The notes beneath the pieces were generated by a model. The model ran no database searches, was not told where the DNA came from, and saw only the letters and a program-made list of their open reading frames with translations. From an uncultured Spirochaetota bacterium (lineage in GTDB: Bacteria; Spirochaetota; Spirochaetia; SZUA-6; Fen-1364): a DNA stretch of 64,000 nt. This document shows, one piece after another, positions 2,927 to 6,604 of this stretch. Made by a program: the position numbers and the translations under genes. How positions within the stretch are numbered: position 1 is the first letter of the stretch; the number at the start of each line of letters is the position of its first letter. The stretch lies in assembly GCA_963734545.1 (NCBI GenBank), contig CAVTHO010000008.1:1-64000 (forward strand), read 5' to 3'.

Positions 2927-3104
2927 GCCTGGCAACGACCTACTCTCCCACCCGTAGCGCGGCAGCTCGGTCGCTCCTGGCGACATTTGGTTTGCGGAGC
3001 AAACCGCGAGAGCGGTCAAGCGGCAGTACCATCGGCGCGGCAGGGCTTAACTTCCGTGTTCGGGATGGGAACGGGTGGTTCCCCTGCGCCATAGTTACCA
3101 GGCA
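2927..3104 (-). pseudogene. rrf: 5S rRNA copy interrupted by a 62-bp insertion
   Basis: Aligns to intact 5S at 42466-42581 except for insertion 2953-3014 and two substitutions. Confidence 0.85.
2953..3014. repeat. hairpin mini-insertion 1 (GCGGCAG..CGAGAGC type with nested hairpins)
   Basis: Absent from the intact 5S. Hairpins GTCGC-tcctg-GCGAC and GGTTTGC-gga-GCAAACC. Confidence 0.85.
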
Positions 3105-3303
3105 ATAATACACACTAGGGAGGACGTGCTCTCGGCGTTTCGGCGCTTGCGCGCCTCCAACGCCTGCCGCACGAATGTCACCGGGTACGGTGACAGAGGT
3201 GAACGAATCGGTCCGTGCAGCCTTGCGGCCGCGCGTCTATGTTTGGGCTTGCGCCCTTTGAGATCGATGAAAAATATGGTCAAGCCTCACGGTAAATTAG
3301 TAC

Positions 3304-3358
3304 GGAGTACCGTTCGAAGGTCTTGGAGCAGGCTTCGCCTGCTTGACAACCTTCGTAC
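3304..3358. repeat. hairpin mini-insertion 2 (AGTA-loop hairpin + long hairpin, GTAC duplicated)
   Basis: Absent from the intact 23S. ACGG-AGTA-CCGT then GAAGGT..AGCAGGC-ttc-GCCTGCT..ACCTTC. GTAC at 3300-3303 and 3355-3358. Confidence 0.85.
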
Positions 3359-3476
3359 TGGTCAGCTCAGTGCGTTGCCGCACGTATACTTCCAGCCTAT
3401 CGACCTGGTTATCTCCCAGGTACCTTCAGGGGGATTGAATCCCCAGGGTTGCCTCATCTTGAGGTGGGTTTCCCAC

Positions 3477-3532
3477 AAATGGTCTCTGCGGACGAAGCCC
3501 GCTCCTGCCATTTGAGCGGTACTCCGCACGCA
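3477..3532. repeat. hairpin mini-insertion 3 (same architecture as insertion 2, opposite orientation)
   Basis: Replaces TT of the intact 23S. Reverse complement reads GCGG-AGTA-CCGC-T-CAAATGG..GAGCGGGCTTCGTCCGC..CCATTTG. Confidence 0.85.
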
Positions 3533-3590
3533 AGATGCTTTCAGCGGTTATCCCTTCCGAACTTGGCTACCCAGCGCCTACCCTTGGCAG

Positions 3591-3616
3591 AGAATGCCAC
3601 GGAGTACCGTGGCCGC
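3591..3616. repeat. hairpin mini-insertion 4 (GAATG type)
   Basis: AGAATGCCACGG-AGTA-CCGTGGCCGC, absent from the intact 23S. Relatives at 3173-3198, 42641-42665 and 48099-48123. Confidence 0.85.
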
Positions 3617-4152
3617 GATAACTGGCACACCAGAGGTTCGTCCATTCCGGTCCTCTCGTACTAGGAACAGCTCCTCTCAAGCAACCAACGCCCATGGCAG
3701 ATAGGGACCGAACTGTCTCGCGACGTTCTGAACCCAGCTCACGTACCGCTTTAATTGGCGAACAGCCAAACCCTTGGGACCTGCTCCAGCCCCAGGATGC
3801 GATGAGCCGACATCGAGGTGCCAAACCTTGCCGTCGATGTGAACTCTTGGGCAAGATCAGCCTGTTATCCCCGGAGTACCTTTTTCCGTTAAGTGAGGCT
3901 CATCCACTCACCACCGCCAGATCACTAAGACCTCTTTCGCGCCTGCTCGACATGTACGTCTCACAGTCAGGCTCCCTTATGCCCGGGGGTGAGTGAAGAG
4001 AAAGACTTGGGCGTGCCCCGCCCGAGGGAACTCCCCGGAGCGCGCGAGCGCCGTCTCCGTGACCGCCCTCGGGCGGGTCGCGTGCTGCGGGGGTTCCGTC
4101 CTCGCTCCGCTCGGACCGCTTCGCGCCCCTCCGCCCGCTTGTAAGCTGATGA

Positions 4153-4310
4153 CGTGTAGAATCCCCTCGTGGATGCTGCTGCCTACCGCCCGCTGCCTCC
4201 GTAAGGAGTCTCCTGCGTGAGATTGCCAGCTCCACGAGGGCCCTTTCGTGCACGTAAAACACATGCCCGCTCCTCATCGGGAGTGGTTGCTCTTTACAAG
4301 GATGCATGAT
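4153..4310 (+). ncRNA. putative bridge RNA of IS110 copy 2 (ends approximate)
   Basis: Target loop: stem CCCTCGTGGA/TCCACGAGGG, guides CCGCCCGCT (4186-4194) and GCGTGAG (4215-4221), capped by CTCC-GTAA-GGAG. Donor loop: stem CGTGCA/TGCATG, guides TAAAACA (4255-4261) and TTACAAG (4294-4300). Confidence 0.8.
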
Positions 4311-4331
4311 CGGGAGAGAGGAGGAAGCTGC

Positions 4332-5733
4332 ATGCGGTACAAGGCCATCGGCATCGATCCCGACAGCCAGGGGGCCATATGCACCTTGGTAGACACGGCG
4401 CTCCCCAAGGTCGCTGTCAAAGAGTTCCTGATTTCAGGCGACGGCCTCAGCCAGCTTGTGCAATGGGTAAGGCAACAGCCGGACGCCGTGATTGCTCTCG
4501 AAGGGCGCAACGGTCAGAGCAAGCCCTTCGAGCGTGCCCTGCAGAGCGCCGGCGTGGTCTTTTACTCGTTTACCGCGTACGAGGTCTCCAAGTTCCGTAG
4601 CGCTGTACTGGGGCAAAACAAGAACAACGAGAAGGACGCAGAGGCGGTTGCACGCTACGCTCTGGCCTTGGAGACGCAGAATCGACTGGAACGCTCGCGA
4701 CGCGTGTGGTTCGTCGACGAAGACCTGCAGACCATTACACGGCTCTATTCCCAGAAGCGCCAAGAAGCGACCCGCGAGACGAATCGGCTGTGGAAGGCCC
4801 TGCGCAAGGCCTCGGGGGATCTCTATCTTGCGTTCCGCGGGTCGCACCCCGATTTCCCGTTCACCCAAAGCTTGCTCAAGTTGAAAGGTGTGGTGCAGTT
4901 GCTGGCGGCCAGCCCAGACGTCAGCTCTTGGCATCTTCTTGCACCGCAAGAGCTTCTGCAGCTCGCCGGAGGCTCCCATCGAGGACGCAAGCCACTGCTG
5001 GAAGCCCTGCAACTTCTCTCTGGTCGTCTCCAGTCGTTTTCATCAACGACCGTGCTGTTGATTCAGTCCTCGGCGGCCGTCCTCCGTGTGCTCTTTGACA
5101 CCCTCGAGAAACTGGAAAGACAATTGGGGGAGCAGACCAAACACAACAACGCGGTCCGGTGGCTTTGCGGGCATCCAGGCATCGGTGTGCTCACGGCCGC
5201 AACCATGATCGCAGAGATCGTCGACGTCCGTCGTTTCCCAACCAACAATCATCTCGCCAGCTACGCCGGCCTAGCGCGTCATGAGTACAAGACCGGCCGA
5301 TCCGGCACCGAGATCGCTACCTCCGTGCACAACCATCGACTGAAGAACGCCTTTTTCGCGGCAGCCAGGAACACCACCCTGCACACCTGACTCACACCTG
5401 GCGGCGTACTACCGGTCCCTGATGAAGCGGGGCATGTCGAACACTGAAGCTTACAAGAGAATCGGCCGCGCTCTGGCCCGCAGGTTCTACCGAGGGCTCA
5501 CGGCGCTGAGCGAGCAGCCCGCACCCTCATCTGAAGAGACGGAAGGCGTCACGGCAACCGGATCTGACCGGGAGGCAAATGAAGCCCCAAGCGACATGAC
5601 GCCCTCCGACGCCCATTATACCCCAACGCCCCTGGAAAGCAGCAACCCGCATCCGGTAGCGGCCAAGCGCTGTGCCCGAGCAACTCACGCCGCGACGGAC
5701 CCGAAGGCAAGGAGGGTACGCGTTTCTCCTTGA
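4332..5733 (+). pseudogene. IS110 recombinase copy 2, frameshifted by a 2-bp deletion near 5383 (could be a sequencing error)
   Basis: CTGCATGCACCTGAC in copy 1 versus CTGCACACCTGAC here. ORFs 4248..5390 and 5422..5733 are the two halves. Confidence 0.8.
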
Positions 5734-5851
5734 CACCGCTAAAACAATCTCACGCGTTTGCGGTCGGCCGCTGCACTGGGTCACCGTGAGTCCGTGGTTT
5801 GACCCGGGAGCCTGGAAAAGCGTGATGGCGCCGGCTGTTGTTCTCTAAGGA

Positions 5852-6604
5852 TGTGCAGGCCGTTGCGGTCTCTGCCGCCAGAAGTCAGACCAACTACGTC
5901 CAGCGAGGAGTCAATACTCTCCAACAAGTGTTTCGGGATCACTTCGCCCGCTTCGCCGCCGAGTACGATTCACGCTACGCGAAAGACCTCGGCAACTTCC
6001 GCATCGAGCGTATCTCCCGCGTGGCGACCCGCTTCCTCACCTGCGGCGACTACCCCTTGAGCGGCAGCGGTGTGTACTCACACCGCGAGAGCTGCCAGGG
6101 CGTGGCCCGCATCCGATTTGTGAACCCTGAATGCCGCCACGAGTACTTCCGCCCCTTCTCTTGCAAAGGCTTCTTCCTCTGCCCATCGTGCAGCCAGAAA
6201 CGAACCCTCCTGTTCGCCGAGCACCTCGACGAGAACCTGTTGTTTGCCCTGCCCCATCGACAGTTCGTCTTCACGCTGCCCAGGCTCTGAGGGTCTTCCT
6301 CCGCCATGATCAGCGCCTGTTCGCCAAGCTCTCGAGACTCATTTTCTCGCTGATCGCCGAGTTCTATTCCGCCGCAGCTGGCAAGCCCATCTCCACCGCC
6401 GCCGCCGTGGCCTATCAGCCCTTCGGGGACTCGCTTCGGTTCAACCCGCACTTCCACGCCCTCATCCTTGAGGGTGGATTCGACTCCACCGGGCAGTTCA
6501 AGAGGCCGATGGTGCGCCGTCCTTCCGAGCTGCGCACGATCCTGCGCCACCTCATCAAGATAGGCAGGGCACCGCCGGGACTCGATCCCAGCTCCCTGAA
6601 CTGA
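5852..6604 (+). pseudogene. IS91-family (Y2 HUH) transposase remnant, frameshifted and internally deleted
   Basis: Zn-binding motifs CGD..GVARIR..C.HEYFRPFSCKGFFLCPSC, HRQFVFTLP, HUH motif FNPHFHAL, then a jump to the C-terminal ILRHL..GRAPPG. The central tyrosine region is missing. Confidence 0.85.
6055..6093. repeat. hairpin mini-insertion 5, in-frame 39 bp inside the IS91 transposase
   Basis: GCGGCAG-CGGTGTG-TACT-CACACCG-CGAGAGC. Removing 6055-6093 restores C-G-D-Y-R-Q-G-V-A-R-I-R. Confidence 0.75.

Follow-up and report, generated by a model that had tools for sequence, protein, structure and literature searches.

A dispersed hairpin motif with a conserved 4 × 4 internal loop in a family of Spirochaetota and in scattered Alphaproteobacteria

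Results

A paired-handle hairpin motif at five sites

The window analysed here is a stretch of 64,000 nucleotides (nt) from an uncultured Spirochaetota bacterium (GCA_963734545.1, contig CAVTHO010000008.1, positions 1 to 64,000). It forms the beginning of contig C8 in a 5.14-Mb assembly with 62–63% GC and 10 contigs, and it carries an intact ribosomal RNA (rRNA) operon, a dead rRNA remnant, two copies of an IS110-family insertion sequence (IS) and a fragment of an IS91-like transposase (Table 1). Within the operon, the remnant and the IS91-like fragment lie copies of a short motif in which two 7-nt handles, GCGGCAG and CGAGAGC, enclose hairpins. The four full sites named in a preliminary description of the window are all present, and a fifth, overlooked there, lies in the 16S-tRNA spacer. 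With a gap of 5–35 nt between the handles, the window contains 3 matches versus 0.10 expected, and none of 100 shuffled sequences reaches 3. The site at 2959 has a 41-nt gap and hence is found in the wider-gap scan only.

Table 1. Motif copies and principal features of the window, with the second rRNA operon of the genome
Feature	Position	Handles	Strand	Description
5S insert	2953-3014	2959-3013	+	62 nt: 6-nt 5' tail CGTAGC, handles enclosing two hairpins, 1 nt 3'
Dead-operon 23S-5S spacer copy	3124-3174	3128-3170	- (rRNA sense)	second hairpin nested in apical loop; z -3.53
IS91-like insert	6055-6093	6061-6092	+	39 nt: CCTTGA, handles with hairpin, T; in N-terminal zinc-finger region; z -3.61
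Intact-operon 23S-5S spacer copy	42603-42642	42607-42638	- (rRNA sense)	outer helix CGTGC/GCACG; ~28 nt upstream of 5S
16S-tRNA spacer copy	46205-46282	46215-46272	- (rRNA sense)	branched 44-nt interior on 7-bp outer stem; z -4.22
IS110-family copies (two)	1-1620 and 4136-5755			97% identical
Dead rRNA remnant	~2912-3983			23S 3' piece, spacer and 5S
IS91-like transposase fragment	5838-6290			open reading frame
Intact 16S-tRNA-23S-5S operon	42466-47863		-	
Second complete rRNA operon	C4:7111-13157			93–98% identical in aligned blocks

Folding of the five copies as single-stranded DNA indicates a common architecture. Specifically, four of them form an outer helix, a 4 × 4 internal loop and an inner hairpin, with z scores of −3.5 to −4.7 relative to shuffled sequences (equalled by 0–1 of 200 shuffles). 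In the intact operon, the 23S-5S spacer copy has a z score of −4.70, with 0 of 200 shuffles as good, and scores 42.3 bits with our search model R1. The insert in the dead 5S gene, antisense to 5S and placed at the 3' margin of loop D, gives a weak, branched hairpin (z −1.33; 16 of 200 shuffles equally good). An identical copy of it, together with a 3' fragment of 5S, is found at C10:216768-216822. Scattered pieces of the 3' half of 5S, including its terminator, also occur in the genomes of relatives. The two 23S-5S spacer copies of the window differ at the apex, where the loop TCGTCAG of the intact operon is swapped for an 18-nt GC hairpin in the dead one. A neighbouring spacer hairpin, GTCACGG-TATT-CCGTGAC (42638-42668, minus strand), is itself a dispersed repeat, with copies of 94–100% identity at numerous loci in this and related genomes.

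A genome-wide search for the handle pair (both strands, gap 5–80 nt) gave 48 matches versus ~25 expected, the expectation being arithmetic from the counts of the two 7-mers (2882 and 1169). A closed, stable hairpin is enclosed by 21 of the 48. With the handles in swapped order, 0 of 26 matches enclose hairpins, and 12 permuted handle pairs give 0–1 hairpins each among 9–42 matches. The association of handles and hairpins is thus real, as the preliminary description had proposed. Its wording that the enclosed hairpins are freely variable and unrelated was an overstatement, because most belong to one family whose stems change by compensation, and nested insertions are present in some. The half-site at 1619-1638 that it added, just outside the first IS110 copy, is not a member: its hairpin folds no more stably than shuffled sequence (z −1.38), and the match is one of chance, since GCTCTCG (1619-1625) straddles the IS110 end, with identity between the two IS copies stopping at 1620.

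Anatomy and covariation of the motif

Across the genome, the core of the motif ranges from 28 to 35 nt. The most frequent form is a 33-nt core, (A)GG-GCGGCAG-nnnGCYGC-GNA-GCRGAnnn-CGAGAGC-C, and in a second subtype the core is 28 nt long, the stem GCGCGC and the 3' handle CGGGAGC. Among 47 elements, the 3' handle is CGAGAGC in 29 and CGGGAGC in 14. In both forms the handles supply a fixed loop, 5'-GGCA facing 5'-GAGA (GGGA in the subtype), closed by G-C. The 4 × 4 purine-rich geometry anticipated for the handles is therefore the minimum-energy fold, with flanking helices that covary and loop letters that are fixed. The proposal of an exchangeable apex was likewise borne out, the apex being occupied by triloops, tetraloops, second hairpins or whole nested elements.

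In an alignment of 19 copies, 93.3% of the cells are paired versus 80.3% in shuffles, 7 of the 12 pairs show double changes, and the covariation score is reached by 0 of 500 shuffles. Among 43 distinct sequences, stem position 4 is a G-A mismatch in 19 and T-A in 15, and the apical loops are GAA (17), GCA (15), GTA (6) and GGA (5). Mini-hairpins with a GNA triloop are unusually stable in DNA, and the apical GCGNAGC corresponds to such a hairpin. In these 43 sequences, which were not selected for pairing, G-T mismatches outnumber A-C by 9 to 1, indicating that one particular strand folds; counts from other alignments were set aside as biased by the choice of rows. Seven of the cores are present twice among the 47 elements, identical, with different flanks or in tandem. 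One locus, C8:703719-703889, has two identical 56-nt motif copies in 115-nt tandem units within a divergent intergenic region.

The same loop is present in Alphaproteobacteria. In 38 distinct alphaproteobacterial copies, the 5' side of the loop reads G (38), G/A/C (28/9/1), C (38), A (38), and the opposite side reads G (38), A (38), G (38), A (37), an invariance that is partly built in, since the search models and patterns fix or favour these letters. The apex of these copies ranges from triloops to inserts of up to 15 nt. In 39 rows from the matches to a looser search pattern (see below), which were chosen for pairing and are to that extent biased, 135 cells carry double changes versus 50.7 in shuffles.

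Insertion, nesting and turnover

Comparison of filled and empty sites shows that the motif is a discrete inserted unit. Alignment of the dead and intact 5S genes with their spacers reveals an exact 62-nt insertion after CTTGAC. In the IS91-like open reading frame (ORF), an exact insertion of 39 nt, or 13 codons, is in frame, and the ORF reads through. Orthologues of the IS91-like ORF in two relatives, G014 and G015 (90–92% protein identity), have an empty site, with GACTACC directly followed by GCCAGG, and in the orthologue of a third relative, G019, the insertion is present, its stem altered and including a T-G pair. The G019 orthologue (contig C99) also has another extra segment of ~29 nt downstream, absent from the other three sequences. 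In both the 5S and the IS91-like case, the inserted unit consists of 6 nt, the handles with their hairpin, and 1 nt.

Turnover is also seen outside these two genes. Between two shell-protein genes, one intergenic site lacks the element in G019 and G009 and has it in this genome and in G014; in G005 the element at this site has another hairpin nested in its loop. The 23S-5S spacers of relatives include one with a motif inside the loop of another, and others with large inserts. The module has thus multiplied, has been gained and lost at orthologous sites, and inserts into genes, in which the copies that persist are in frame or harmless, and into hairpin loops, including those of its own kind.

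In comparison with the intact 23S gene, the 23S 3' piece of the dead remnant has two more hairpin insertions, at ~3477-3532 and 3591-3616 (minus strand): a segment of ~54 nt replacing two bases, and a 26-nt hairpin, CACGG-TACT-CCGTG. Counting the insert in 5S and the hairpin nested in the spacer copy, the remnant contains four hairpin insertions. Both element insertions and the two insertions in the dead 23S abut a small predicted hairpin of the uninterrupted sequence. Hairpin boundaries as insertion targets were considered and set aside, as the cases number only four, all in structured RNA genes, too small a basis for evidence.

Genomic placement

Model R1 gives 45 matches in this genome (E ≤ 1), and the copy number is ~45–47. 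By crude gene calls made for this analysis, 37 of the 47 elements lie outside called genes, mostly 10–130 nt from a gene end, and 10 lie inside called ORFs, several of which probably have over-extended starts. Convergent gaps contain 11 elements and divergent gaps 2. Co-directional sites contain 13 in sense and 10 in antisense orientation, which is not decisive for a bias with respect to the transcribed strand. Likewise, no replication-strand bias was detected among the 47 (25 versus 22).

In 15 of the 47 elements, GTAG is found no more than 9 nt from the handle on its 5' side, and it then pairs with CTAC in the outer helix; the first six letters of the two proven insertions are CGTAGC and CCTTGA. 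In mosaics, the elements are interspersed with other hairpins, among them a CCGCGG/GTAC type that is found both beside and inside the motif. Hairpins of the CCGCGG/GTAC type are likewise extragenic but form a distinct family without the GCGGCAG and CGAGAGC handles. Intergenic mosaics at C7:154738-155170 and three other loci are rich in NGGATG and ACAGGGATG, which resemble the CsrA-binding consensus. The idea that these arrays act as a CsrA sponge was set aside, as the excess of ACAGGGATG is weak (63 versus ~38 expected).

The contig start is the apparent left end of the first IS110 copy, identity with the second copy beginning at base 1, which suggests that the assembly broke at the IS110 repeat. 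No further IS110 (PF01548) match was found genome-wide beyond these two copies.

Distribution in two phyla

Among the Spirochaetota, the motif is concentrated in one family. Model R1 has matches in 23 of the 24 other genomes of this family (1–47 copies each) and in 0 of 16 genomes of other families in the order, and a flank-free model, R2, has none in 150 other Spirochaetota (44 candidates scored per genome). The named records with the same repeat are metagenome-assembled genomes (MAGs) of Spirochaetota. Of 19 extracted 23S-5S spacers of the family, 9 retain both handles exactly, with degenerate handles in three or four others; the remainder of the spacer does not align. In one degenerate copy, the closing G-C pair has become A-T by changes on both sides. 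The second rRNA operon of this genome, on contig C4, has a 23S-5S spacer copy with a decayed 3' handle; in its 16S-tRNA spacer, CGAGAGC is kept, and the 5' handle and hairpin are absent.

A 24-base pattern searched in one genome per species gave 64 loci: Spirochaetota MAGs account for 58 of them and Alphaproteobacteria for the other 6, whose stems covary. When the outer helix was dropped to make the pattern looser, there were at least 119 matches. Among the matches listed, five or more of the 6 inner pairs are formed in 43 versus ~3.6 expected by arithmetic, and nearly all of these 43 have a complementary but different outer helix (for example GGC/GCC, CCC/GGG, CAT/ATG, GCT/AGC). Rhodobacterales, Hyphomicrobiales and Azospirillum are represented among the matches listed. 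Cultured carriers include Vannielia litorea, Jannaschia faecimaris, Cohaesibacter celericrescens and an Azospirillum strain. Alphaproteobacterial genomes with the motif have 3–14 copies each; 16 of 41 genomes are positive in a Rhodobacterales-centred set around and including G094, and 3 of 150 other Alphaproteobacteria are positive in an even sample of the class.

Alphaproteobacterial copies occur in the rRNA spacers, both behind tRNA-Ala and between 16S and the first of the spacer tRNAs, as well as after 5S, after a lone tRNA and after the signal recognition particle (SRP) RNA. In one alphaproteobacterial MAG, a tRNA is followed by 114-nt tandem units with the motif, and every unit has a degenerate tRNA 3' end. 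In another alphaproteobacterial genome, G160, the motif lies near the centre of a dispersed repeat of ~250 nt (at least 5 copies) that is placed after the terminators of unrelated genes and has no Rfam match.

No family of Rfam 15 covers the motif in the window or in 10 spirochaete loci, and none was found at 14 alphaproteobacterial loci at an E-value threshold or at 15 further loci at the gathering cut-off. The only Rfam match near the motif is a weak one to RsmY (23.3 bits versus a cut-off of 57). Literature searches for the handle strings, and for a palindromic-repeat, tRNA or internal-loop motif in Alphaproteobacteria, gave no relevant record, the strings matching unrelated text of the primer type only, which does not prove that the motif is unpublished. 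The accessible text on RepRanger does not mention it (PMC12306157), and the Cuckoo and CcsR RNAs, as far as the available text describes them, have a different motif (PMC4615179).

Discussion

What keeps small palindromic repeats recognisable is rarely clear. For the present motif we propose, with moderate confidence, that it is a hairpin module of the repetitive extragenic palindromic (REP) type, in which the internal loop acts as a docking site on a folded single strand. In size and shape it is a short imperfect palindrome whose stem-loop is backed by folding and covariation, and in dispersal it is present in many copies that are mainly extragenic and rarely in divergent gaps. Its patchy occurrence is likewise what mobile repeats typically show. 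One strand folds into a variable outer helix, the invariant 4 × 4 loop, a covarying inner stem, often with a G-A mismatch, and a variable apex, mostly the GCGNAGC triloop hairpin. The loop is constant in two phyla and both helices drift by compensation, which argues for a sequence-specific reader of the folded strand. The loop and its closing pairs would be the docking site for a protein acting in trans. If that site were required for copying or for a host function, the loop would be expected to stay constant across the two phyla while the helices drift. Recognition by a protein, which the preliminary description had also put forward, is what we infer from this pattern; the analysis found no partner protein. 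The copies that lie in rRNA spacers or downstream of highly expressed genes are part of transcripts and may also serve as RNA structures in 3' trailers.

Several observations weigh against a REP-type module, and a first group concerns the enzyme. The only Y1 transposase of this genome is of the IS200 type and has its own, different hairpins. Y1 genes are present in 15 of 25 genomes of the family, and the motif lies within 1.5 kb of none of 20 Y1 loci; no Y1 match was found in three genomes rich in copies, G002 (47), G010 and G160, although these absences, like those below, rest on incomplete MAGs and absence is not proven. The motif does not flank genes resembling those for REP-associated tyrosine transposases (RAYTs) at 6 loci of two alphaproteobacteria. 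At the loci examined, no RAYT or Y1 gene is flanked by the motif in the manner of the REP-RAYT arrangement (REPtron or REPIN). With neither linkage nor co-occurrence, RAYT and IS200 transposases were rejected as mobilisers, and the copying enzyme would be of another kind. Moreover, a target duplication is absent from both the 5S and the IS91-like insertion, the constancy of the loop is in part a product of the searches, and the near equality of the two replication strands is uninformative because GC skew is weak in this genome.

Other points hint at a function for the host in place of a purely selfish element. At 20 rRNA loci of the family, 10 of the 11 R1 matches are on the rRNA sense strand, and the sole R1 match listed for G015 is probably its 23S-5S spacer copy. 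In Rhodobacterales, the motif follows tuf (3 genomes), groEL (2) and a dehydrogenase gene (2), always in sense and always upstream of the terminator, with compensatory stem changes between genomes whose flanks cannot be aligned.

These points suggest the main, though tentative, alternative, namely that a functional RNA motif came first, a hairpin resembling loop E of 5S rRNA that is bound by a host protein or nuclease in 3' trailers, and that its expansion in spirochaetes is secondary. The preservation of both handles in 9 of 19 otherwise unalignable spacers is consistent with this, as are the alphaproteobacterial contexts, which are nearly all sense (tRNA, 5S, SRP RNA, tuf, groEL, dehydrogenase), the compensatory differences between orthologous copies, the nearly invariant loop letters of the alphaproteobacterial copies and the GGTA/GAGA of loop E in the organism's own 5S. 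The dispersed spirochaete copies, by contrast, have no strand bias (13 sense versus 10 antisense), the 5S insertion is antisense, and so are two alphaproteobacterial rRNA-spacer copies. The decayed 3' handle in the 23S-5S spacer and the missing hairpin in the 16S-tRNA spacer show that the motif is dispensable in the C4 operon. It is also rare in Alphaproteobacteria outside the Rhodobacterales-centred set, the common CGGGAGC subtype changes a loop letter, and the likeness to loop E was judged by eye, its sequence half having been read here and its geometry taken from general knowledge. A fuller version of the same idea, that the motif is an undescribed class of structured RNA offering a loop-E-like dock to bL25, another protein with affinity for purine-rich internal loops or a processing nuclease on the 3' trailers of stable RNAs (5S, tRNAs, SRP RNA, rRNA spacers) and of tuf and groEL mRNAs in certain Alphaproteobacteria and one spirochaete family, and that in spirochaetes it became mobile and multiplied, entering hairpin loops, 5S and protein genes, is in our view rather unlikely. 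The two kinds of explanation are compatible, as an RNA module read by the host may have become mobile.

A third explanation, which we regard as improbable, is that the motif, as duplex or cruciform DNA, serves as a site for a topoisomerase or a nucleoid protein behind genes under heavy transcription. Such sites have been proposed for some REP clusters in Escherichia coli, and both the copies downstream of rRNA, tRNA, tuf and groEL genes and the indifferent orientation of the spirochaete copies would fit. Most spirochaete copies, however, are not beside obviously highly expressed genes, and a strand-asymmetric loop, the frequent G-A mismatch and the excess of G-T over A-C would be meaningless in a duplex. 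That the motif is a target or end of a nearby IS, for example of the bridge RNA of IS110, or an attC-like recombination site, is very improbable: IS110-family elements are known to target REPs, according to the accessible part of one report (PMC11208160), and the half-site at the IS110 end had hinted at such a link, but that half-site is a chance match straddling the IS end, the flanks of the two IS copies are unrelated, those of the second lack the motif, the genome has only these two copies, and the handles differ from attC core sites.

Several implications follow. Eight unpaired, purine-rich loop letters that are kept while the helices covary are the pattern expected of a specific binding site on one folded strand. 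The spread over a spirochaete family and scattered Alphaproteobacteria implies either transfer between phyla or the same reader in both. Copies behind rRNA, tRNA, SRP RNA, tuf and groEL genes in cultured Alphaproteobacteria make the reader, of DNA or of RNA, directly testable. The window further illustrates which sites tolerate such insertions, namely loop D of 5S, the zinc-finger region of a transposase and the loops of other hairpins. For annotation, such insertions can make rRNA or protein genes seem broken or lengthened.

Among known systems, loop E and helix IV of 5S rRNA resemble the motif in letters. The 5S of this organism reads GGTA-C...G-GAGA, and the motif reads GGCA-G...C-GAGA. The motif, however, has only half of the loop, its closing pair has the opposite orientation, a loop base differs in the CGGGAGC subtype, and the Rfam 5S model does not match it. 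The attC sites of integrons resemble the motif in being folded single strands with a conserved base and a freely variable top that are read by structure. Unlike attC, the motif has handles that are not core sites and copies that are dispersed, and no cassette arrays or integrase context were seen, an integrase not having been searched for. Rickettsia palindromic elements, which are ~100–150 bp and confined to Rickettsia, are likewise palindromes whose insertion is tolerated, in frame in protein genes as well as in RNA genes.

The motif also resembles REPs and the bacterial interspersed mosaic elements (BIMEs) that they form. As in the accessible text of the REP survey by Di Nocera et al. 2013 (PMC3733652), the elements are 28–58 nt long and multicopy, sit mainly beside genes, between unidirectional or convergent ones, fall into subfamilies with compensatory stems, are rarely intragenic and form mosaics with other hairpins. 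Like the motif, the CGTC REPs of that text have no dedicated transposase (PMC3733652); their description there, with 8–9 bp stems that start with A-T pairs and with CCA tails, does not fit the motif. One of the survey's 28 families may be related to the motif (PMC3733652). Unlike REPs, it has no linked RAYT, and its loop is common to a spirochaete family and several alphaproteobacterial orders. GTAG, a tag of some REPs, lies beside a minority of its copies only, and there inside the outer helix, an incomplete hallmark that also counts against the REP-type assignment. As far as the survey's available text goes, the unpaired terminal GTAG or CGTC is the constant part of a REP, whereas here the constant part is the internal 4 × 4 loop with its closing pairs, and it is this constant internal loop in place of a terminal tag that would be new beside the known REPs (PMC3733652).

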